From: a virus
Taxonomy: Duplodnaviria; Heunggongvirae; Uroviricota; Caudoviricetes
Virus record (IMG/VR): IMGVR_UViG_2711768067_000018
Length of the DNA stretch: 23,081 nt
Direction: 5' to 3' (one strand)
This document shows positions 1,832-19,848 of this stretch, one piece after another. The notes below the pieces were generated by a model. It did not search any database, was not told the origin of the DNA, and saw only the letters and a program-made list of their open reading frames with translations. The translations under genes and the position numbers were made by a program. Position 1 is the stretch's first letter; each line of letters begins with the position of its first letter.

Positions 1832-2439
1832 GCGTTTACTCTCAGGTTATCAATTAAATGAATGGCCGAGGCCGGGAAATAATCCCCTCCGACAATAATG
1901 GCCTCCGGGGTGTAGGGATAAACCGTCAGGGCGTCACCGTGATAGCATCCCGCACCGGCAAAAATGTTGCCGGTTGTACTTAAACTGATAGCCAGTCCCG
2001 TCAGATGGCGGCTTGCCGGTTTTGCATCAGCAACGAGACGCTCCAGCTCCTGATACATTTCCTCGGTAATACCCTGCTCAAGCACGCCAACAACGATGCG
2101 GAACGTCCCCGGCTCCTCGTTGAGCTGCCACCACTCCCTCACCTCAATCAGATAGCCGAGCGGCTCCACCACACGCCGGATTGCGCCTATAGTGCCCTTA
2201 TGGCAGTGAATGAAATACGCATCGCGGATAACAGCGCGTTTTGTCGCTTCCGGCCACTTATCATCCCAGCGGTCAACAGAAAATGACCACGCCAGCCACG
2301 GCAGCAGATTTGCCGGACAGGTATCCGGGTTCCACAGCTCACGAATACTGACCGGCGTTTTTTCAATTTCCGCACAGGCTTTTGCGGCGGCGACTTCAAG
2401 CAGTGATGAGCCGGTCGGCAGCAGGCGCGAATCACTCAT
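1828..2439 (-). CDS. I: Baseplate assembly protein I
   Basis: 203-aa ORF in the P2 gpI position; its start overlaps the J stop (2432-2439) and its stop overlaps the H start, consistent with translational coupling. Confidence 0.85.
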   Translation of the reverse strand: MSDSRLLPTGSSLLEVAAAKACAEIEKTPVSIRELWNPDTCPANLLPWLAWSFSVDRWDDKWPEATKRAVIRDAYFIHCHKGTIGAIRRVVEPLGYLIEVREWWQLNEEPGTFRIVVGVLEQGITEEMYQELERLVADAKPASRHLTGLAISLSTTGNIFAGAGCYHGDALTVYPYTPEAIIVGGDYFPASAIHLIDNLRVNA

Positions 2440-3340
2440 CCGAGCCTCCGGTCACGACGCGGTATTCGGTACAGAAAGACGCCTGCGTACTGTTGAGCAC
2501 GATGTCGGCCAGTGGTGCAGCCAGTTCGACACGCTGCACACCTTCCACATGCAAAGCGGCATAAATGGCAGACAGACGGATGTCACGCCCCAGCCGGTGC
2601 TGTGCCGTGATATACGCTTCCAGTTTTTTCACGGCGGCAGCGCGAATGGGTTCGCTTTCGGGACCAGGGTAAAGGTAAAGCGTGGCGTTTATCTGGTATT
2701 CAACGATGGCGGCAGACTGCACGGTCACGCGGTCGGCCACCGGCCTGACATCCTCGCCATTAAGGGCGTTACGTACCACAGCCAGCAGGTCTTCGGATGC
2801 CACACCGTTATTCTCACGTGACAGCACAGAGATGGTGACGCAGGCCGGAGACGGACTGGTGACAGAGATATCCGCGACACGCCCGTCGGCACTGCGACCA
2901 TGATACTGATAGGCACCCACCGACCCGGCGACGCTTAAGCCCTCAAACGCCTGCTGAATACGCAGACGATAATCGGTGTCAGACTCCATCACTGCCGGTG
3001 TCGGCGGGATGGTCGAATCATCTGCCGGGGTGATAATCAGGCGTGTGGTGTTGTAATTGGCACCAATCACATCAAGGTCATTACCGGCGGCACAGGCCAG
3101 CATTACCGCCCGTGCGGCCTCATTCACACGCTGACGCCAGATAAGCTCACGATAAGCGTTTTCCTCCAGCAGTTTGACGATAGGCTCGGATTCCAGCATC
3201 AGGGTACGGGCGACCGCCTCCTGCTGGTCTTCCGGGTAAAGGGAAATCAGTGTCGCCTTGCGTTCAGCAAGAATGGTTTCAAAGTCCAGCTCCTCGACCA
3301 CATCCGGTGCGGGTAGCTGGTTCAGGTCGATAATCGGCAT
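2432..3340 (-). CDS. J: Baseplate assembly protein J
   Basis: 302-aa ORF, the size of P2 gpJ, in the W-J-I position. Confidence 0.9.
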   Translation of the reverse strand: MPIIDLNQLPAPDVVEELDFETILAERKATLISLYPEDQQEAVARTLMLESEPIVKLLEENAYRELIWRQRVNEAARAVMLACAAGNDLDVIGANYNTTRLIITPADDSTIPPTPAVMESDTDYRLRIQQAFEGLSVAGSVGAYQYHGRSADGRVADISVTSPSPACVTISVLSRENNGVASEDLLAVVRNALNGEDVRPVADRVTVQSAAIVEYQINATLYLYPGPESEPIRAAAVKKLEAYITAQHRLGRDIRLSAIYAALHVEGVQRVELAAPLADIVLNSTQASFCTEYRVVTGGSDE

Positions 3341-3344
3341 GGTT

Positions 3345-3692
3345 TCAACTCACAGGGATGGTTAACGAAAGTGGCTGGCCGGTGTCGTTGTGCCGGCCGG
3401 TTAACGTGACCGTCATTCGCCCGTCAAAACTGCGCTCAGTGGTGACGGATGACAGGGTGACGCGGGGTTCCCATTTCAGCACCGCCATGTAACAGGCGAC
3501 CTTAATCTGCAACTCAAGCGCCGGGGTCTGCGGCTGGTCAATCATTGACGCCAGCAACGAGCCGTAATCACGACGCATCACCCGTGAGCCGACCGGCGTG
3601 CGCAGGATATCGCCGATACTCTGGCTGATATGCTCAAGGTCAGTGACAGTCAGGCCATCACTGCGATTCATTCCGAGATAACGCGCAGTCAT
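3345..3692 (-). CDS. W: Baseplate protein W (GPW/gp25 family)
   Basis: 115-aa ORF, the size of P2 gpW, between V and J. Confidence 0.9.
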   Translation of the reverse strand: MTARYLGMNRSDGLTVTDLEHISQSIGDILRTPVGSRVMRRDYGSLLASMIDQPQTPALELQIKVACYMAVLKWEPRVTLSSVTTERSFDGRMTVTLTGRHNDTGQPLSLTIPVS

Positions 3693-4324
3693 AGAGGTCC
3701 CCCGGTTGTGCCGCCGCTGTCGCCGGGGTGTTTATGGGTATGCAGTACCTTACCGTTTGATGAGAGTTCACCGCCGGTGTGTTCAATGTTGCCGCGCATC
3801 GTCCCGCCCTTCTGTACTTCCAGCGTGCCGGTAGTCAGTTTGTTAGTGCAGACCACTTCCGGTGTGTCCAGGGTGACACGGGTTGACGCTTTCACCGTGA
3901 CCACCGGTACCGTGGCAGTAACAGAATCAGAAGCCGTCACGCTGGCCGTTTTAATTCCGCTTACCGTGAGTGCACTGGTTTCGGGTTCATACTCAATCAC
4001 CGCCCCGTCAGGGAAACGGATATGCAGGGCATCCGCCGACACAGACGGCGAGGGGTTATCGCCGGAATAAATCCCCGGCAGAACGAACGCCGTGTCGAGT
4101 TCACCGCCCACGGCCAGAATCAGCACCTGTTCCCCCACGGAAGGTGCCCACCATGTGCGCGAACGTCCGGCGCGATGGGTCAGCCACTGAAGCCAGTCGG
4201 TGCACATGCCGCCGGTCTGCACACGGCAGCGACCGGCGTTAAGGTCGGTTTCAACGATAATGCCGGTGCGGATCATGTTGCGCAGTGCGCGCGCGAGTTC
4301 CTGAATATTTGCGAGAGTGTTCAT
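3689..4324 (-). CDS. V: Baseplate spike / assembly protein V
   Basis: 211-aa ORF, the size of P2 gpV, with a Gly/Thr-rich C-terminus; its stop overlaps the W start. Confidence 0.9.
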   Translation of the reverse strand: MNTLANIQELARALRNMIRTGIIVETDLNAGRCRVQTGGMCTDWLQWLTHRAGRSRTWWAPSVGEQVLILAVGGELDTAFVLPGIYSGDNPSPSVSADALHIRFPDGAVIEYEPETSALTVSGIKTASVTASDSVTATVPVVTVKASTRVTLDTPEVVCTNKLTTGTLEVQKGGTMRGNIEHTGGELSSNGKVLHTHKHPGDSGGTTGGPL

Positions 4325-6263: not shown

Positions 6264-6761
6264 TTAAGCCGGTACGCCGCCAGCGGTACGCCAGACGGTG
6301 ACCAGTTTTTCCAGTGAATGCTCACGCTGACCGTAACCGGCACCCGGCAGGGACGCCCAGATATTGCGACAGCGTGAAATGGCGCGCTCAATGCGTCCCG
6401 CCCGGATGTCATCCAGTGCACCGCGTTCGCGGATCAACTGAATGGCGAGCCTGTCCTGTGACAACGGACTGAAATCCGGCAGGGCAAGCTGTTTGCGGTA
6501 GTGCGGCCAGAACAGGTAAAGCTGCTGATAGCGACCGGAGGCCGTGGATTTTTCACCGCGACGGTTAAACACCTTCGCCGGTCGGCCATGCGCGAACGGG
6601 TGGTCACTGTAGTCGGTGAAAATTTCCGGCTTTCCGTCCAGTCCGGTGACTATCACGTCATAGCCCCGGTTTTTCGTCAGCGGATGATTCGCCGTCCCTT
6701 CGGACACGGCCAGCATGTCGAGAAAGGCGGCGATATTCTGATGCGTGTTAATTACCGGCAT
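6264..6761 (-). CDS. K: Endolysin K (phage lysozyme)
   Basis: 165-aa ORF, the size of P2 gpK, directly downstream of holin Y; its start overlaps the Y stop. Confidence 0.9.
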   Translation of the reverse strand: MPVINTHQNIAAFLDMLAVSEGTANHPLTKNRGYDVIVTGLDGKPEIFTDYSDHPFAHGRPAKVFNRRGEKSTASGRYQQLYLFWPHYRKQLALPDFSPLSQDRLAIQLIRERGALDDIRAGRIERAISRCRNIWASLPGAGYGQREHSLEKLVTVWRTAGGVPA

Positions 6762-13736: not shown

Positions 13737-13755
13737 GTGCTTTCCCCGCCTCGCC
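13737..13755 (-). other. Candidate cos cohesive-end site (19 nt)
   Basis: GTGCTTTCCCCGCCTCGCC is the reverse complement of GGCGAGGCGGGGAAAGCAC, which I recall as the P2 19-nt cohesive end; it is located just beyond Q as in P2 and is followed by a GC-rich hairpin plus T-run (13755-13778). Confidence 0.55.
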
Positions 13756-13993
13756 CGCCCGCTTCATGGGGCGGTTTTAATGCAGTTGCATAGATACTAT
13801 GGATCCGCACCAGTCCTGACCGCACGCAGCCTGAACGGACATCCCCGACGCATGCAAAAACATTCACTTGTTGCATGCAACGGCTTATTTAATGACAAAT
13901 CAACTTAAATTTACAAAATCCACAGGTATGGATACTTTGCGAACATGATAGGCTTACGAGAATTATCGAGCCTATTTTTGACCGGAGCAATGT

Positions 13994-14935
13994 ATGCAAG
14001 GTAAAGTTGACGAACAGCAATCCAATGATATTGAAGCTGAGTTTGGATACTATCCAGTAGAAGTTAACGTTGAAACTGATGATTTTTCTTTACTTACTTT
14101 ACCCGGTCTAGCGGAAAAAACAAATCTTATAAACAATCACAGAAATGTTATTAACGGTTGGATATACCCAGGAAACCAAGAAGTATATAACCTCAATGGA
14201 GGCATATCCACAATGCCTTTTAGCCAACGAGTATTTGGCTTACCCAAAACACACTCACTAAAATTAAAAAATACATCTTCACTAGAAACTCTCAATTTTG
14301 CTGTGTGGTGTCTGTCTTTTTTCAAAGGGATAAGATTAACAACTACTGATGCCGGTTTTTTAGACGCAACCCCAATAAAACCCAGCAAATTAACTGACTT
14401 TATTCTGGTCAAGTGCTCTGAAAAAGAGGTTATAGAATTAGCACTCAAATACATGTCTAGCGAGACAAAAACCAAACTCGCACCAATAAATATAGCAGCA
14501 ATAGTGCATGCACTATTTTTATCCCAAAACCCACAATACCTTAGCTTCGAAAAATTCCAGTATCTTTATATGGCACTGGATAGTTGCTTTGCTTTAACAT
14601 GGGCAGAAAAGAACAAGTGTACAGAAAAGACTCTAAATCACTCCAGGCGCTTGAAGTGGATCTGCAAAACTTATGGAATACCACGACCATCATGGGTTAC
14701 AGGCAAAAAAAACATTACAAACATCCGCAATGAAAACTTTCATGAAGCTATGTTTCATGGTCAACCACTTGGCTTTACCACTATTAACAATTATCAATAT
14801 GGAGATGACATATTACAACAAATGCAGGCTTTAATTTGCCGATTACTCGTTGCGATTCTTGGTGTTAACGCCCCCGATTACATCACATCGAACGTGAACT
14901 CTCGTGAATATCATTCACTAACATTAAAAATATAA
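13994..14935 (+). CDS. Hypothetical cargo protein (313 aa) with HEPN-like R-N-x3-H motif; candidate abortive-infection RNase
   Basis: Uninterrupted AT-rich ORF with GGAG 6 nt upstream of the ATG; motif RNENFH at residues 245-250 (nt 14726-14743); composition clearly different from the phage core. Confidence 0.6.
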   Translation: MQGKVDEQQSNDIEAEFGYYPVEVNVETDDFSLLTLPGLAEKTNLINNHRNVINGWIYPGNQEVYNLNGGISTMPFSQRVFGLPKTHSLKLKNTSSLETLNFAVWCLSFFKGIRLTTTDAGFLDATPIKPSKLTDFILVKCSEKEVIELALKYMSSETKTKLAPINIAAIVHALFLSQNPQYLSFEKFQYLYMALDSCFALTWAEKNKCTEKTLNHSRRLKWICKTYGIPRPSWVTGKKNITNIRNENFHEAMFHGQPLGFTTINNYQYGDDILQQMQALICRLLVAILGVNAPDYITSNVNSREYHSLTLKI

Positions 14936-14950
14936 AACGACTAAAAATAC

Positions 14951-14975
14951 TCTCCAGTAACAATAAGTACTGGAG
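14951..14975. terminator. Hairpin between convergent cargo genes (likely terminator, mainly for the minus-strand transcript)
   Basis: TCTCCAGTA-N8-TACTGGAGA inverted repeat (9-bp stem); a T-rich tract follows on the minus strand (tattttta). Confidence 0.45.
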
Positions 14976-15017
14976 ATGTATTATCACTAAAACCAATAAA
15001 AAATCACAACTAATGCT

Positions 15018-15617
15018 TTACTTAGATAGTTTGTCTTTAATTATATTCAGAACACCAATTATTAATTCACTGATTGGCGTGGCCAACTCAATAGTATTAG
15101 ATGTCGACTTTGTTCTAAAGTCTTTATCTGTCGGGTGTTGAAATGCTGATTTAAGAAGAGTCAAAAGCAAAGTTAAACCCACACCAAGGATGAATGCAAC
15201 AATAGCTATTAGAGAACTGGCCGATAACCAATCGGTGGATAAACCAGAAATAGATTTTCTAACTTTATTAGTGTCTGAAGATGGTGTTATCCTCTCATCA
15301 GCCATCTTCGGATCCGAAGATAAAGCAGAACATTTTTCTGCTGAAACACAAGTTTGTGTATCTACTTTTTGTGTTATCGCTGCGGCAATACTGCTTTTCG
15401 CTTCCAGCAAGCCATTTCCAACAGCCAAAGCAAAGTTAAGCCCCTGCCATAGAAATGTACAAGCAAAACAAAGCACAACGGCAGAGAGCACTAATCGCAT
15501 ACTTCTACGCTCTATACCATCCCGTCTATCTCGCCTTATAAGGATATCAGGATCTAAATCGCCCTTAGGAGTGGTTCCTTGCTCTGGGGACTGTCCAGAT
15601 AAATCAATATCAGCCAT
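15018..15617 (-). CDS. Hypothetical two-transmembrane-segment protein (199 aa); candidate membrane effector
   Basis: Two hydrophobic stretches (about residues 42-68 and 144-166) flanking a hydrophilic region, charged N-terminus; AT-rich; downstream of and co-oriented with the ImmA-like gene. Confidence 0.65.
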   Translation of the reverse strand: MADIDLSGQSPEQGTTPKGDLDPDILIRRDRRDGIERRSMRLVLSAVVLCFACTFLWQGLNFALAVGNGLLEAKSSIAAAITQKVDTQTCVSAEKCSALSSDPKMADERITPSSDTNKVRKSISGLSTDWLSASSLIAIVAFILGVGLTLLLTLLKSAFQHPTDKDFRTKSTSNTIELATPISELIIGVLNIIKDKLSK

Positions 15618-15620
15618 AAA

Positions 15621-15658
15621 AAAATCACCCTTACATGTACAAACGTAAAGGTGATTTT
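15621..15658 (-). promoter_or_regulatory. Terminator-like hairpin with U-tract that overlaps the RBS of the membrane-protein gene
   Basis: 13 of 14 bp inverted repeat AAAATCACC(C)TTAC / GTAA(A)GGTGATTTT with a 10-nt loop; on the minus strand the 3' arm (containing the GGGTGA Shine-Dalgarno-like sequence) is followed by TTTTTTT and then the ATG at 15617. Confidence 0.5.
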
Positions 15659-15683
15659 AAACAGGTTAAAAGTTAAAGGCTAA

Positions 15684-16169
15684 TTAATAAGCCATTCCTA
15701 AGCTCTTTAAGCGCCAATGCATAGCGGCTTCTGATACATTAAAGATGCTTGCTAATCTCAAAGTGCTATCAATACCTTCTCTGGATACCAATTGACGTAT
15801 AGCAGACTCAGGCATTAACAACTCAGCAGCAAACTTGTTTGCTTCAACCTCACGGTAATCACGAGCACCTGTTGAATAATTCCCGACATTATCCCGATGG
15901 TACTCTCCGTCCTGGGTATGCCCCAGCACATGATGACCTAACTCGTGTGCAACAGTAAAACGTTGACGATTAGAATGTTCACTAGAATCAAAATAAATCC
16001 TATGGACACCCTTTTTGATGACAGCCAGACCGCTTAACCCATCGTTGTTATAAGCCGATTCCTCAAGTGCTTCAACACGAGCACCCCACGCTTTAGCAAG
16101 CTTAAACGGATCGACAGGTAGTCGGCGATCCCAATAGCGGTCAAGCAGTTTTTTAGCTGCATAGCTCAT
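15684..16169 (-). CDS. ImmA/IrrE-family zinc metallopeptidase (HEXXH)
   Basis: 161-aa ORF with HELGHHVLGH (HEXXH) and a downstream EANKFAAELLMP motif typical of ImmA/IrrE (COG2856-type) peptidases; AGGAGG 5 nt upstream of the ATG. Confidence 0.85.
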   Translation of the reverse strand: MSYAAKKLLDRYWDRRLPVDPFKLAKAWGARVEALEESAYNNDGLSGLAVIKKGVHRIYFDSSEHSNRQRFTVAHELGHHVLGHTQDGEYHRDNVGNYSTGARDYREVEANKFAAELLMPESAIRQLVSREGIDSTLRLASIFNVSEAAMHWRLKSLGMAY

Positions 16170-16205
16170 GGTTGCCTCCTACGTTAAAAAAGTTAAGTAT
16201 GCACA

Positions 16206-16234
16206 GCCATATCACAGTTGTTATTTTATGTCAA
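16206..16234 (-). promoter_or_regulatory. Candidate sigma70 promoter for the ImmA-like gene
   Basis: On the minus strand: TTGACA (16234-16229), 17-nt spacer, TGaTATGGC extended -10 (16211-16206), about 35 nt upstream of the start codon. Confidence 0.5.
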
Positions 16235-16890
16235 GGCTGTTTTTCAGCCATTACTATAACACTAATCCACGTTTTCCCATAACATTTTCGACATCATATA
16301 TGCATTCAGTTCTGCATATAGAGCTTATCTTTGCTGATAACACGAGATGAATACGCGCAACCAGCCCACGATTTATAAAAAACCTTATAAATCAGAATAT
16401 TGAGTTAAAAAAACACTAACTACTTGCGCAGCGAGTTGTTAAACCTCAGCGATACTAAAAGAAAATTTCAGAGTCACCGAAGTTTCCACAGAAAACGCAA
16501 CTTAATGATTTTATTGGAATTTATGTCGCTATTTTTAATTACTTGTTTAAATCCGCCATATTGAAACTGTGCATTTCTAGCCACTCACAACTTTAAAAAA
16601 TTTACATTGCTTTCAAGACCTTATCATCCGTAGTCTCTGCTTTTTACTTTGAGCTATATCAAAAAAAGCTCAAACATCCTTGATGCAAAACCAGTATTAC
16701 ACAACATAAAATGCAACCAGAAACAACGACATACTATATGTTGTGTTGTTCAGGTCCTCTGTTCGGTGATATGCCAGATCACTTTGCGTTTAAACAGAGC
16801 ATTATTTCAGGGCAAGACTTCGCTCAATAGTCACTCCGCCTTAGAAGCGCATATATCGGCGGAAATTGCCCTCTGCTTACAGGAGGCGAT

Positions 16891-17004
16891 ATGAAGAAGT
16901 GCTATTACTGCATTCTCGTTCTGGCCCTCTTTGGCTATCCATATGGTAGTCCGAGTGGTTTGTCAGTAAACGTCAGTAATATCCATGTAAGTATTTTTCT
17001 TTAG
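16891..17004 (+). CDS. Small hydrophobic ORF (37 codons), hypothetical
   Basis: AGGAGG with a 4-nt spacer before the ATG; translation MKKCYYCILVLALFGYPYGSPSGLSVNVSNIHVSIFL; followed immediately by a strong terminator. No homology evidence available. Confidence 0.3.
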   Translation: MKKCYYCILVLALFGYPYGSPSGLSVNVSNIHVSIFL

Positions 17005-17016
17005 TATGCTTCAAAC

Positions 17017-17047
17017 AAAAAAACCACCTGCCAGGGTGGTTTTTTTG
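17017..17047. terminator. Bidirectional rho-independent terminator
   Basis: AAAAAAACCACC-TGCCAG-GGTGGTTTTTTT: stem flanked by an A-tract on one side and a T-tract on the other; located between the small plus-strand ORF and the 3' end of minus-strand gene A. Confidence 0.65.
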
Positions 17048-17306
17048 CGCCCGTCATCAATCCGATGAAAGACTAGCAAGACTTCGCTCGAGATGAATTA
17101 TGCTTCGACATAAAGTCACTCGCAATGGTTTTATTAACCGAAATAGATGCTCTTTTATGACTCGAATCAAATAGCTGCCTTCAATTACATGCTAACGATT
17201 CAATACAATTTAGCCTTCTGATTCAACACGCTATTGCTCCTCATCTACCTTAGAGGTGTTTCGCATAATCCATTCAAAGACATATAAAATCACGCTGTAT
17301 TTTTAC

Positions 17307-19583
17307 TCAAATGGATAACAAAAATCCCGGCCAATCATCAGCGACCTGATAAGTGAAAGGTTTCCCGTCATAATTTACGGTCGCGCCACGCGCCAGCGCC
17401 TCAAGCTCCCATCGTTGCGGCCTGATACCGTTCTGAGCGAGATCAACGCGGATACGGGTAATTTGCAATCGTTCCGACCGGGTCAGTCTGGCCGATGGTG
17501 CAATTTCATGCGGTTTTAACGGGCTTCCGTTTCTTTGCTGACGGTTTGGCGTTCTCCGGTCGTGTTTTAATGCGCCCCTGAGCGCCCTCACGACCTCCGG
17601 GTCATTCCATTCGATAACATCGTCATCAACCAGATTAAGCACTGCTGCGGCGTGCTCAGAAGGTGTGGGAGCCGGTAACGAAGTATCACCACCGGTGAGC
17701 TTTCCACAGTTATTGACAGGACTCCGAGGCGCGGCGATGCCGCTTTTTAAAGTCAAAGGCTCAACGACCGGAACTTTCGGCACAATGCGCCAGTCCGTCG
17801 TTCTGGTGATATGAATATGACGCGCGCCGAGATGCGGCGCGTAAATGCCGACCACTCTCTCGACTTCTTCCTCGTACTCGTTAACGTCATCCGACAGACT
17901 ACGGGCGACTCTGACAGTCTGGCAATCGCGCGGAACATTTGCCCCGCCCTGCGCGCTGATATACAGCGCAAAATCACCACTGTCTGCGGCGGCGCGTGCA
18001 GCCTCGACGCGCTCGTCAAACTCATCAGCAATGCTGACGCCGCGAGGCAATTTGCGTAGTTCACGGTAAGCCCCCATTGTCGGCAGGCCAACCGTTTTAA
18101 ATTGCGGAATGCGCCACGTTGACGCCCATGCGGTAACAGCCGCTGCAGTGTCTTTCAACGGCCTGCCGGTGTCGTTATCGAGCTGACCATCCAGTGCATA
18201 GCCGTCGATGTTTTTTGAAATGTATTTCGCGATATATCCCGCAGCACCGCCCCGGTTAAGGTGTTTTGCCTGAAAACGGTTTCGCGCGGCTCCTCTTTCG
18301 TCGCCATCCTCTTTGAGCGCATAGCGACGCATGATTTCGATAATCTGGTTACGCTGGCGTGGATGACAAAAAAGCATCATATGCCAGTGCGGCGTTCCGT
18401 CGTGGTGTGGCTCGACGACTCGCAAACCGTAGACCTGTAAATCATTATCCTTGAATGCCGTGCGCATCAGGCTCCAGATACGGCAGAGATAACGCTGCGC
18501 ATCCTTTGGATTAAATGCCTCATCGTTCCAGCCGTGATTAAGCTGAACGGTTTTACTTTCGCCTTTTCCGACCTGACGTGTCGGGTGATACTTTGACGGC
18601 GCGGTCAGCGTGATAAACATCCCCACATCACCCTCTGCGGCGGCGTAACGCTCAATACCGGCAATGGTGTTCATCAGCTCCATCCGGCGAATTTCAGGAT
18701 TAGAAATACTGCCCATCACCTTACTGATAAGGTCGATGCGCTCGCCGGTTTCCCTGTTTTCAAGGTCACACGATTTAAGAAATTCCAGATTTGCCTGGCG
18801 GCGCGCACGCACATCACGAATGGCGTGTTTACTGGCATAAGGAGAACGGTCTTTATTGACCTCCCCGACAGCTATCAGTAACGCCTCATGCCAGCGCATA
18901 CGCTGGCCTTTAAGCTGATGAGTCCACCACTCATCGTTAAACAGGCGGGCAATGGCAGAATATGCCTGCCTCGTGGTCATCTGTCCTTTACGGTATTTTT
19001 TCCAGTAGAGCGGGGAAATATTGAAAGCACGTGCAGCGCCAGCAACATGACCATACAGGTGAGCCTGCGCCTCATCCGTAAACAGCGATTCTTTTTCACC
19101 ATGCGCATCAACCCATGCATCGCAGAGTTCCTCATACATCATGAAAAGCTGCGATGAGATACGGGCGGCAAACTTTTTCAGCTCCTTGTCATTCATTCCC
19201 GGCAGGCGCGCATAGTGGTCACGCTCTGCCAGAAACAGCAACGACGCGTCGGTGTTCATTTCATGGCGCTGATTCACACGCTCAATGCGCGGCCATAAAC
19301 GACGCTGAAAAGTAGATGTGAGGAAATAAAACCCGTGCACCGGGCTTTTATTGCGCCGGATGTAGTCATAGCGTGAAGTAAACAGCGAGCGCAAAAAGTA
19401 AGGCAGGCGGTTAATCGTGGATAAAACACCTTGCACCTGACGCATCTCGTCACGTGTAAGAGGTCTTTCGCGCCCGACAGCCTCGCGTGGCGCGTTCCAT
19501 GCATAAGCACCGGTAAACGCCTTACCGGTGCCTGCGGTAAATGCTGACGGAGGGACAAAACGCCCGGAGGCTTTAACGGCCAT
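17307..19583 (-). CDS. A: Replication initiation protein A (rolling-circle nickase)
   Basis: Long ORF in the P2 gpA position; start chosen at the ATG at 19583 (MAVKASGRF...), as the ORF-track start at 19625 is a TTG. About 758 aa, close to P2 gpA. Confidence 0.9.
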   Translation of the reverse strand: MAVKASGRFVPPSAFTAGTGKAFTGAYAWNAPREAVGRERPLTRDEMRQVQGVLSTINRLPYFLRSLFTSRYDYIRRNKSPVHGFYFLTSTFQRRLWPRIERVNQRHEMNTDASLLFLAERDHYARLPGMNDKELKKFAARISSQLFMMYEELCDAWVDAHGEKESLFTDEAQAHLYGHVAGAARAFNISPLYWKKYRKGQMTTRQAYSAIARLFNDEWWTHQLKGQRMRWHEALLIAVGEVNKDRSPYASKHAIRDVRARRQANLEFLKSCDLENRETGERIDLISKVMGSISNPEIRRMELMNTIAGIERYAAAEGDVGMFITLTAPSKYHPTRQVGKGESKTVQLNHGWNDEAFNPKDAQRYLCRIWSLMRTAFKDNDLQVYGLRVVEPHHDGTPHWHMMLFCHPRQRNQIIEIMRRYALKEDGDERGAARNRFQAKHLNRGGAAGYIAKYISKNIDGYALDGQLDNDTGRPLKDTAAAVTAWASTWRIPQFKTVGLPTMGAYRELRKLPRGVSIADEFDERVEAARAAADSGDFALYISAQGGANVPRDCQTVRVARSLSDDVNEYEEEVERVVGIYAPHLGARHIHITRTTDWRIVPKVPVVEPLTLKSGIAAPRSPVNNCGKLTGGDTSLPAPTPSEHAAAVLNLVDDDVIEWNDPEVVRALRGALKHDRRTPNRQQRNGSPLKPHEIAPSARLTRSERLQITRIRVDLAQNGIRPQRWELEALARGATVNYDGKPFTYQVADDWPGFLLSI

Positions 19584-19848
19584 ATGAGCCAAAAGCCTCT
19601 GAACAACGCTTGCTGAGTTGCTCAACCTGCGCGTTTAAATCAGCAAAAGATTTTGCGCTTCCGGTCAGAATATCGTGATGCATCAGGCCGGAAACGAGCT
19701 GGCCTAATTTCGGGTAATAACCAACCACCGCCAGCCATTCCTGACCGGCGTTTTTACCGCTTTCCGCTCTCTTTTTCTCGTGGAGAATAAACTGAAAGCT
19801 GTCACTGGTAACGACATAACGTTCGCCAATTTCAATACGAATACTCAT
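19573..19848 (-). CDS. Small early protein (P2 orf83-like), hypothetical
   Basis: 91-aa ORF; its start overlaps the upstream ORF stop and its end overlaps the A start, part of the B-A operon. Confidence 0.7.
   Translation of the reverse strand: MSIRIEIGERYVVTSDSFQFILHEKKRAESGKNAGQEWLAVVGYYPKLGQLVSGLMHHDILTGSAKSFADLNAQVEQLSKRCSEAFGSYGR

Follow-up and report, generated by a model that had tools for sequence, protein, structure and literature searches.

The unannotated gap beside gpA in a P2-like prophage: a probable immA regulatory region and a candidate par-like peptide cassette

Why should several hundred base pairs without an evident gene be present in a densely coded phage genome? This question is raised by positions 16235-16890 of IMG/VR record IMGVR_UViG_2711768067_000018, whose 23,081 nucleotides, here called the window, represent a P2-like (Peduovirus) prophage. 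The original prediction regarded the interval as AT-rich DNA without a real long open reading frame (ORF) and considered a non-coding RNA, a pseudogene remnant or a recombination scar. We found that the interval is not one feature. It comprises the regulatory region of an immA cargo, a junction of ~120 bp, and the promoter and leader of a 37-codon gene. To the reading that this right part (16593-16890) belongs to a mobile cassette built like a type I toxin-antitoxin (TA) locus of the par design we assign a probability of roughly 0.55.

The description of the interval as such was confirmed. It is unannotated and has a G+C content of 37.0%, the values for the whole window and for gpA, the replication endonuclease gene to its right, being 52.4 and 53.6%. 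One stop-free run of at least 60 codons was observed where 1.9 are expected, and the longest run (86 codons) compares with a mean of 78 in shuffles of the stretch. The ORF content thus corresponds to what non-coding AT-rich DNA yields by chance. Two mechanically called ORFs touch the interval (Table 1). The longer one, already suspected of being spurious, spans the promoter described below, and in the L002-type allele a 2-nt indel following 16715 disrupts its reading frame. The shorter one shows no codon periodicity when compared with its 87%-identical counterpart, and the indels between the two are not multiples of three. Except for the 37-codon ORF just right of the interval the stretch is non-coding, and its unusual feature is the conservation of non-coding DNA of this length rather than the absence of an ORF. 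The true gap, 16170-17306, comprises the 1137 bp between immA (end 16169) and gpA (start 17307). It is the largest gap of the prophage, has a G+C content of 37.6% and carries zero RefSeq annotation in 150 of the 150 Escherichia coli genomes with a matching stretch.

The 37-codon ORF and the facing candidate small RNA

The small ORF starting at 16891 had been treated as separate from the interval, whereas the right part of the interval is best read as the control region of this ORF. The idea of a non-coding RNA survives in a modified form: the right 300 bp are best understood as promoter and mRNA 5′ leader, and a candidate small RNA is encoded a short distance to the right of the interval, on the minus strand (17014-17089), without matching an Rfam family.

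The ORF is exactly 114 nt long in all 12 distinct alleles, and indels are frequent just outside of it. Among all variants the variable columns are distributed 13/10/25 over the three codon positions; within the phage clade (20 haplotypes) the 13 variable columns fall 3/0/10 (binomial p ~0.002). The 37-residue peptide has a hydrophobic N-terminal segment (residues 4-16), followed by a turn of G, P and S residues and a C-terminus of alternating hydrophobic and polar residues. Its nine variants share the conserved core CILVLxLFGYPxGxxSGxS, and the form in the window is 59% identical to that found on plasmids. Searches of Pfam and NCBIfam with permissive E-values and of PADLOC gave no match, and the best PHROGs hit had E = 0.42. 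A protein database of 5.8 billion clusters contains the peptide in 3 + 1 clusters, named “hypothetical” at best; database cluster P0003 represents a truncated prophage remnant. A description of the peptide, of the repeat strings given below or of a similar type I locus in Klebsiella or P2 was not found in the literature. Decayed copies (L144, P0001) comprise a truncated prophage remnant with a fused ORF of 71 amino acids and a read-through peptide variant of 68 amino acids.

Across 22 variants the first leader hairpin and the predicted target of the small RNA (Table 1) are invariant or nearly so. In the predicted mRNA fold, the partner of the Shine-Dalgarno (SD) sequence is 16909-16916, within codons 7-9 of the ORF. 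A predicted helix within the ORF (16923-16960) contains eight pairs with one-sided, wobble-compatible changes and zero broken pairs. We regard this modelled fold as moderately supported.

On the other side of the ORF, the candidate small RNA would be transcribed towards it from a predicted sigma-70 promoter. The -10 element of this promoter is invariant, the -35 element reads TTGCGA or TTGCGG, and the spacing is always 17 nt, although 9 of the 17 spacer bases differ between clades. An intrinsic terminator predicted to act in both directions would serve the ORF transcript as well as the small RNA, and probably the gpA operon too. It is essentially invariant among the aligned variants, with only the lengths of the flanking A/T runs differing in a few. 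It was not called by the terminator scan, presumably since its stem is lengthened by the A/T runs. The terminator core (17019-17046) is 100% identical over 28-36 nt to many small plasmids (2.5-8.3 kb) of E. coli, Salmonella and Proteus and to one plasmid of 68 kb; it also gives a sub-threshold match to Rfam RNAI (27.8 bits, gathering score 47).

The middle hairpin of the small RNA differs in stem sequence from subtype to subtype, but the hairpin is kept, and five of its pairs show compensatory changes. In this hairpin 98% of the cells are paired, compared with 46-70% in slid controls, and the covariation score of 0.252 (0.157 in shuffles) was reached by none of 500 shuffles. Its G.U pairs fit a minus-strand RNA only. 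We consider the predicted hairpin well supported.

The two predicted transcripts are connected by a 14-nt direct repeat, GCAAGACTTCGCTC, with one copy in the leader (16812-16825) and a second one beyond the terminator (17076-17089), where it begins 7 nt after the small-RNA -10. The first 13 nt of the small RNA are invariant, and the seed starts 7 nt past the -10 in every variant. This 5′ end is complementary to leader positions 16811-16825, giving a duplex of 15-17 bp in all 22 variants, and four of the five substitutions in or beside the duplex are compatible with pairing. An A-to-G change at 16817 in the leader copy turns an A-U into a G.U pair, so that the DNA identity of the repeats is broken and RNA pairing is kept. 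RNA duplexfold calculations against shuffled small RNAs were uninformative since long loops are allowed.

Further upstream of the small-RNA promoter lies a palindrome with invariant half-sites (17157-17170). Its four central nucleotides take six forms (TCGA, CCGG, CAGA, AGGA, CGGA, TGGA), and its centre is always located 66.5 nt from the small-RNA -10. Judged by sequence, it looks like a site for a protein of the FNR/CRP family.

The same arrangement occurs outside of prophages. Positions 16700-17130, i.e. the cassette without its promoter, match 388 plasmids at ≥80% coverage and ~75% identity. Nearly all of these are large conjugative IncF plasmids of Klebsiella, and nothing is annotated at the cassette. 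A metagenome scan, which used a leader motif excluding the direct repeats (the 14-mer repeat alone is too unspecific as a search pattern), revealed 29 further loci and three plasmid-like subtypes. Homology between phage and plasmid forms extends from ~16600 to ~17200 and is not alignable beyond, which delimits a self-contained cassette of ~600 bp. Across ~25-28% divergence the ORF, SD, ATG, both repeat copies, both predicted promoters and the terminator are kept. Contig L227 carries two diverged copies of the cassette 2.9 kb apart (3368-3747 and 6290-6668).

An alignment with related prophages, which had been proposed as a check, did reveal conserved parts, and the core diverges less than its flanks. 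The two main phage alleles show differences of 7-13% in the core (16593-17095), of 25-39% in the flanks and of only ~5% at third codon positions of gpA; the block thus holds old alleles with a constrained core. On these grounds we think it quite probable that the cassette, consisting of a conserved ORF, a facing small-RNA gene and conserved complementarity between them, is real.

Alternatively, the conserved sequences may act as DNA, namely as packaging, replication or regulatory protein sites near cos or gpA, with the 14-nt repeats as protein sites. The block is indeed located ~250 bp from cos in related prophages, and both repeat copies have one sequence and one orientation, which is common among protein sites. 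However, the same cassette resides on Klebsiella plasmids with neither cos nor gpA nearby, the repeat substitutions break DNA identity and preserve RNA pairing, the G.U pairs of the middle hairpin fit only the minus-strand RNA, and the ORF has a coding signature. We therefore regard such a role as highly improbable and keep to the peptide and small-RNA cassette.

A predicted promoter related to that of the host nrdDG genes

Sensitive BLAST of 16590-17130 against E. coli genomes revealed that 16593-16689 matches the treC-nrdD spacer at 83.5-85.6% identity in all 5426 of the 5426 genomes. This spacer is the nrdDG promoter, and from the alignment the ancestry of the predicted cassette promoter from an nrdDG-type promoter is clear. 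In the nrdDG promoter the FNR sites are centred at -64.5 (site 2, the essential one) and -33.5 (site 1), with FNR binding studied on a 54-bp probe (PMC10425943). The cassette contains two predicted FNR sites at the published spacing. Together with the -10 element, whose spacing also corresponds to nrdDG, they place the predicted transcription start at ~16720 by homology. In the plasmid clade the FNR sites read TTGTTCTGGGTCAA and TTGATGCAAATCAC and the -10 element TAGAAT, and all offsets are unchanged compared with the phage form. Judging from these motifs, FNR probably controls the cassette promoter.

The E. coli nrdDG promoter is activated by FNR and repressed by NrdR. The probe sequences in PMC12176259 contain six NrdR boxes of E. 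coli, from which we derived a weight matrix. The palindrome at 16731-16746 outscores all six training boxes, and a second, weak box-like sequence overlaps the -10 element. Start to start, the two are 32 bp apart here and 34 bp apart in the L002-type allele; the distance is 31 bp in E. coli and canonically 31-32 bp. Relative to its E. coli counterpart, the strong box is displaced downstream by 10 bp. An upstream box like that of K-12 is left only in plasmid subtype A (14.4 bits), which has also retained the downstream box, as have the phage alleles. From these sequence matches, NrdR control of the allele in the window is a tentative proposal.

The cassette promoter thus resembles that of nrdDG by ~85% identity over ~100 bp, by the spacing of FNR sites and -10 and by NrdR-box-like palindromes overlapping the -10 element and the transcript start. 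Unlike nrdDG, the cassette copy precedes a 37-codon ORF and not ribonucleotide reductase genes, its similarity to nrdDG fades beyond the -10, and in most plasmid alleles both NrdR-like boxes are decayed. Ribonucleotide reductase genes are the targets of the NrdR regulon; no similarity to NrdD was detected downstream by tblastn.

This ancestry would also fit an inert relic, in which illegitimate recombination in the gpA-cos hotspot left a piece of the host nrdD promoter with a chance ORF behind it. Recombination in the hotspot is known to be intense and to leave behind short remnants of non-coding DNA (PMC13586616), and 60 P2-like loci of other species lack the block, including those with a GpA that is 97-98% identical. 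Nevertheless, the core is 2-4 times less diverged than the flanks. Moreover, ORF length, SD, complementarity and promoter geometry outlast ~25% divergence and transfer to plasmids, the ORF shows codon periodicity, and the small-RNA hairpin contains a compensatory change. A relic is hardly to be expected on this evidence, and we retain the interpretation as promoter and leader of the 37-codon gene.

Comparison with type I toxin-antitoxin loci

The par locus of the Enterococcus faecalis plasmid pAD1, with the Fst toxin mRNA RNA I and the antitoxin RNA II, has promoters that face each other, one bidirectional terminator for both transcripts, a direct repeat and a stem that sequesters the SD (PMC7472228). 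The same geometry can be read from the sequence of the cassette and is kept across its clades. The convergent promoters and the shared terminator would make the 3′ hairpins of both RNAs complementary, the direct repeat, read in opposite directions, would provide a second complementarity near the 5′ ends, and a stem is predicted over the SD. A peptide of ~35 residues and carriage on plasmids and phages are common to both (PMC7472228). As in type I TA systems in general, the cassette has an ORF for a small (<60 amino acids) hydrophobic peptide with its own ribosome-binding site.

The differences concern several levels. The cassette peptide is unrelated to the Fst/Ldr superfamily: the PXXXG(C) motif and a charged C-terminal tail are absent from nine of nine variants. 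The cassette has one repeat pair and not two, and its repeat is located 55-70 nt upstream of the SD, whereas it lies over the initiation region in par. Furthermore, the hosts are enterobacteria, and the promoter on the presumptive toxin side is of the FNR type. No match was obtained to the type I toxins of enterobacteria that Pfam and NCBIfam cover (Hok, Ldr, TisB, Ibs, ShoB and others) or to their antitoxin RNAs in Rfam.

In the E. coli systems tisB/istR-1, zorO/orzO and dinQ/agrB, which also encode small hydrophobic peptides and have trans-acting small RNAs, the 5′ end of the small RNA is complementary over a short region to a long, structured toxin leader well upstream of the ribosome-binding site. 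The cassette resembles them in the position of the pairing site far upstream of the SD and in the small hydrophobic peptide. Unlike in the cassette, their small-RNA gene lies upstream in divergent orientation instead of converging on a common terminator, their promoters are LexA-responsive or constitutive, and the peptides are unrelated. Published descriptions give a complementarity of 16 nt for ralR/ralA and base pairing for zorO/orzO.

The covariance-model search suggested by the original prediction yielded nothing at the Rfam gathering score in the window. With E ≤ 10, positions 16100-17400 gave only sub-threshold, terminator-driven matches (RNAI, Phe leader and others), and two plasmid-type loci gave nothing at the gathering score. 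A repeat search showed nothing array-like, and no arrangement resembling type III TA systems or CRISPR was found.

According to the mechanism that we propose, the nrdDG-derived promoter would fire at ~16720. It carries two FNR sites, to which this allele adds NrdR-box-like sequences that cover the -10 and positions +12 to +27; expression would thereby depend on anaerobiosis and perhaps also on the deoxynucleotide pool. The resulting mRNA, with its folded leader of 171 nt and its SD paired to codons 7-9, would encode the hydrophobic, putatively membrane-active or toxic peptide and stop at the bidirectional terminator. The opposing sigma-70 promoter would give rise to the small RNA of ~76 nt, ending at the same terminator. 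Pairing of its 5′ end with leader positions 16811-16825 over 15-17 bp, and of the terminator hairpins of both RNAs, which are complementary too, may then block translation or trigger mRNA decay.

A number of observations weigh against this interpretation. The diversity of the cassette is limited to two clades with about six subtypes. The peptide matches no toxin family, lacks the charged tail usual in type I toxins and has a hydrophobic run of ~13 residues. The pairing site is not placed over the SD as in par, and the direct repeat is a possible duplication relic and recombinogenic; in metagenome contig L231 the cassette is deleted exactly between the repeat copies, with loss of the ORF. The mRNA fold was predicted on the same alignment that scored it, and in the minimum free energy (MFE) structure of the window's own sequence the depletion of variable sites in stems reached only p = 0.043. 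As to the promoter, the NrdR-like spacing is off (32 or 34 versus 31 bp) and the upstream box is weak (9.3 bits). Both boxes are decayed in plasmid subtypes B and C, and NrdR control is thus not a family trait. A simple promoter scan gave no plus-strand promoter call, which is expected for an activator-dependent promoter and provides no independent support.

Alternatively, the cassette is expressed but the peptide is no toxin. It could be an anaerobic small membrane protein, serving as a lysogenic-conversion or plasmid fitness factor and tuned by the small RNA as an ordinary repressor. Typical type I toxins have a charged C-terminal tail and a long helix, both of which are missing from the peptide, and none of the toxin families matches it. 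Its promoter looks conditionally activated by FNR, unlike the constitutive toxin promoters of plasmid killer loci, and a possible FNR/CRP-type site is also present upstream of the small-RNA promoter. However, convergent RNAs, a shared terminator, a direct repeat and a sequestered SD constitute the layout described for par-type toxin loci, and the cassette spreads alone between prophages and conjugative plasmids, with two copies on one contig, as addiction modules do. We consider a non-toxic peptide rather unlikely. The chances that the cassette has a toxin-antitoxin function are about even.

If the par-like reading is right, a gene pair overlooked by all annotation pipelines is present in ~3% of the complete E. 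coli genomes and on several hundred IncF plasmids of clinical Klebsiella. There would then be one more toxin family and an instance of the par design from Gram-negative bacteria, and a mobile element would have copied the promoter of a host regulon so that anaerobiosis or nucleotide supply sets the timing of a small-peptide module. In the P2 hotspot, “intergenic” DNA beside defence cargo could accordingly be a functional cassette and not recombination debris. In practical terms, a likely maintenance element of plasmids or prophages would be flagged on resistance plasmids. More speculative is the proposal of a new par-like type I TA family in enterobacteria, with a toxin promoter captured from host nrdDG and a killer or growth-arrest peptide placed under the oxygen sensor FNR of the host and, in phage alleles, under its deoxynucleotide-pool sensor NrdR. 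The maintenance of prophages and plasmids could be favoured by such a module specifically under the anaerobic conditions of the gut. Depletion of deoxyadenosine triphosphate by an incoming phage or by replication stress could be a further trigger, which would make the module a nucleotide-sensing abortive-infection switch in the P2 defence hotspot.

Table 1 Features in and around the interval (coordinates refer to the window unless a contig is named; promoters, RNAs and binding sites are predicted)
Feature	Position	Strand	Remarks
37-codon ORF	16891-17004	plus	MKKCYYCILVLALFGYPYGSPSGLSVNVSNIHVSIFL; unannotated
Promoter region of the 37-codon ORF	16593-16719	plus	homology to the treC-nrdD spacer
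FNR site 2	16649-16662	plus	TTGAGCTATATCAA; best FNR-consensus match of the window
FNR site 1	16680-16693	plus	TTGATGCAAAACCA; 31 bp from site 2
-10 element	16707-16712	plus	TAAAAT; offset homologous to nrdDG
NrdR-box-like palindrome	16731-16746	plus	ATACTATATGTTGTGT; 20.0 bits, top of the 23-kb window
Weak NrdR-box-like sequence	16699-16714		9.3 bits, rank 3 in the window; overlaps the -10
Leader	16720-16890	plus	171 nt
First leader hairpin	16757-16799	plus	43 nt; invariant
Target of the small RNA	16811-16825	plus	GGCAAGACTTCGCTC; in the leader
Second leader hairpin	16836-16863	plus	compensatory G-C to A-U change at 16838/16860
SD	16881-16886	plus	AGGAGG; 4 nt before the ATG at 16891
Bidirectional intrinsic terminator	17016-17047	both	A7-CCACC-loop-GGTGG-T7; perfect 13-nt inverted repeat
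Candidate small RNA	17089->17014	minus	~76 nt; MFE z-score -4.25
Small-RNA 5′ seed	17089-17076	minus	GAGCGAAGUCUUGC
Small-RNA middle hairpin	17073-17049	minus	
Small-RNA sigma-70 promoter	17125-17097	minus	-35 TTGCGA 17125-17120; 17-nt spacer; -10 CATAAT 17102-17097; consensus scan
Palindrome	17157-17170		ATGAC-N4-ATCAA; upstream of the small-RNA promoter, centre ~-73 from its predicted start
Remainder of the gpA 3′ untranslated stretch	17171-17306	minus	13-26% divergence between phage alleles
gpA, replication endonuclease	17307-19625	minus	
Mechanical ORF, 60 amino acids	16168-16350		begins opposite the immA start codon; touches the interval
Mechanical ORF, 81 amino acids	16649-16894		TTG start; touches the interval
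Junction/spacer, cargo to cassette	~16471-16592		34-50% divergence between alleles
immA-linked non-coding DNA	16291-16470	not assigned	found only alongside immA; 15.5-20% divergence from P2DC1
Element upstream of the immA promoter	16236-16290		55 nt; direct repeats ATAACA(C/T)T x2 at 16256 and 16281
immA promoter		minus	extended -10 TGaTATGGC 16214-16206; 17-nt spacer; -35 TTGACA 16234-16229
immA 5′ region	16170-16234	minus	ribosome-binding site GGAGG 16179-16175; read from sequence
immA (161 amino acids, ImmA/IrrE, M78 peptidase)	15684-16169	minus	PF06114 3.8e-21; PADLOC capP 1.1e-30
Peptidase and membrane-protein pair	15018-16169; L003 326-1502; L206 1977-3141		
P2 cohesive-end (cos) sequence	13737-13755		GGCGAGGCGGGGAAAGCAC; 19 nt

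The immA side of the interval and the prophage hotspot

In the window the genes for capsid scaffold (O), terminase (P) and portal (Q) end by 13567. Between cos and gpA lies AT-rich accessory DNA with an ORF of 313 amino acids, a membrane-like ORF of 199 amino acids and the ImmA/IrrE (M78) peptidase gene immA. This cos-proximal site between gpA and gpQ is a known accessory hotspot of P2-like phages, in which P2 carries orf91, tin and old (PMC9122126). The cassette occupies the same genome position and consists, like other hotspot DNA, of AT-rich accessory DNA that differs among close phages (PMC9122126). Unlike the P2 genes, it appears to be an RNA and peptide module without similarity to orf91, tin and old; it is not a defence system recognised by PADLOC and persists beside different cargos or none. 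A pseudogene of orf91, tin, old or other hotspot cargo, one of the earlier suggestions, was not supported: tblastn of 12 proteins (P2 Orf91, Tin, Old, cargo proteins of related prophages, NrdD and TreC) against 16100-17350 stayed at noise level, with a best E of 0.026 in the 1.25-kb space and no collinear matches.

The left end of the interval had been set correctly at the immA promoter, on the minus strand. The hexamers of this promoter are kept in three diverged immA modules (the window, phage P2DC1, listed as L003, and E. coli 602687, listed as L206), and the element directly upstream, 16236-16290, is ~90% conserved in all three; it probably serves the cargo operon as an operator or UP region. 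Apart from 16195-16290, nothing of this stretch is shared by the third module, that of E. coli 602687. The DNA from 16170 to ~16470 was found only where immA is present (50 of 5426 genomes) and in addition in phage P2DC1 (~80% identity) and in Salmonella phage MET_P1_103_31. Comparison of the window with P2DC1 showed a divergence of 15-20% over 16170-16470, without codon periodicity and with indels that are not in threes. The two immA genes differ at 105 sites, 74 of them at third codon positions (46% of the third positions). The stretch thus diverges less than the third positions of immA and represents constrained non-coding DNA. We infer that it is the promoter and operator region of the immA cargo and make no finer assignment.

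Since it is better conserved than the synonymous sites of immA, contains no conserved ORF and adjoins an ImmA/CapP-like protein without a helix-turn-helix partner in three module variants, these ~300 bp could also encode a non-coding RNA or an unrecognised ImmA partner beyond promoter and operator DNA. Folding of 16200-16470 on either strand was nevertheless not significant (z-scores of -1.4 and -2.2), and Rfam gave no match. Two full-length alleles are too few for a structure test, and the third variant shares only part of the stretch. We judge an additional RNA or protein product unlikely and prefer the promoter and operator region. A LexA box (CTGT-N8-ACAG) beyond chance was not detected upstream of immA, and the upstream element showed no similarity to the C/cox operator region. 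With respect to known CapP/ImmA-type protease modules, the M78/IrrE protease is present, and an adjacent gene for a helix-turn-helix substrate or repressor was not found. PADLOC gave single-gene matches only for the immA cargo (capP, 1.1e-30; RmrA). An ImmA/CapP-like M78 peptidase followed by a small membrane-like protein occurs as a pair in three diverged versions in the P2 hotspot (Table 1), and this pair may be an undescribed defence or induction module.

The explanation as a recombination scar holds only for ~16470-16592, where alleles differ by 34-50%, and not for the remaining interval. In prophages with cargo elsewhere, 16471-16592 continues from the cos flank, and in the alignment the backbone of L006 and L007 resumes at ~16466. 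The block ~16540-17306 is common to ~100 further prophages at 86-94% identity, which carry other cargo (an AAA ATPase, SIR2 or a hypothetical protein) or none. The cos flank runs directly into the block in these prophages, so that the immA cargo can be recognised as an insertion of ~2.56 kb (~13909-16469). Accessory genes lie between cos and gpA in the window and in P2DC1. In L002, L006 and L007 they are found on the portal side of cos instead, as an AAA ATPase gene in L002 and a SIR2 gene in L006. Cargo is thus found on either side of cos in this phage lineage, and two insertion points flank cos.

A search with nhmmer, using a profile of the 763-nt block, found no match in 60 GpA-encoding loci of other Enterobacterales species; the block thus does not belong to the backbone common to P2-like phages. 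In Escherichia albertii and a further Escherichia species (L145, L147) GpA is 98% identical to that of the window, but the DNA downstream of it is wholly different. According to this, the cassette itself is accessory.

Three minor observations remain. In a decayed copy (L009, ~3488) an ISVsa5 insertion cuts the cassette at about window position 16677. The window contains a run of seven N at 984-990, within its first ORF. Many “complete” E. coli chromosomes have base 1 at the prophage gpA gene (RefSeq records; block at 2278-3414), and such assemblies seem to be rotated to the phage replication gene rather than to dnaA.

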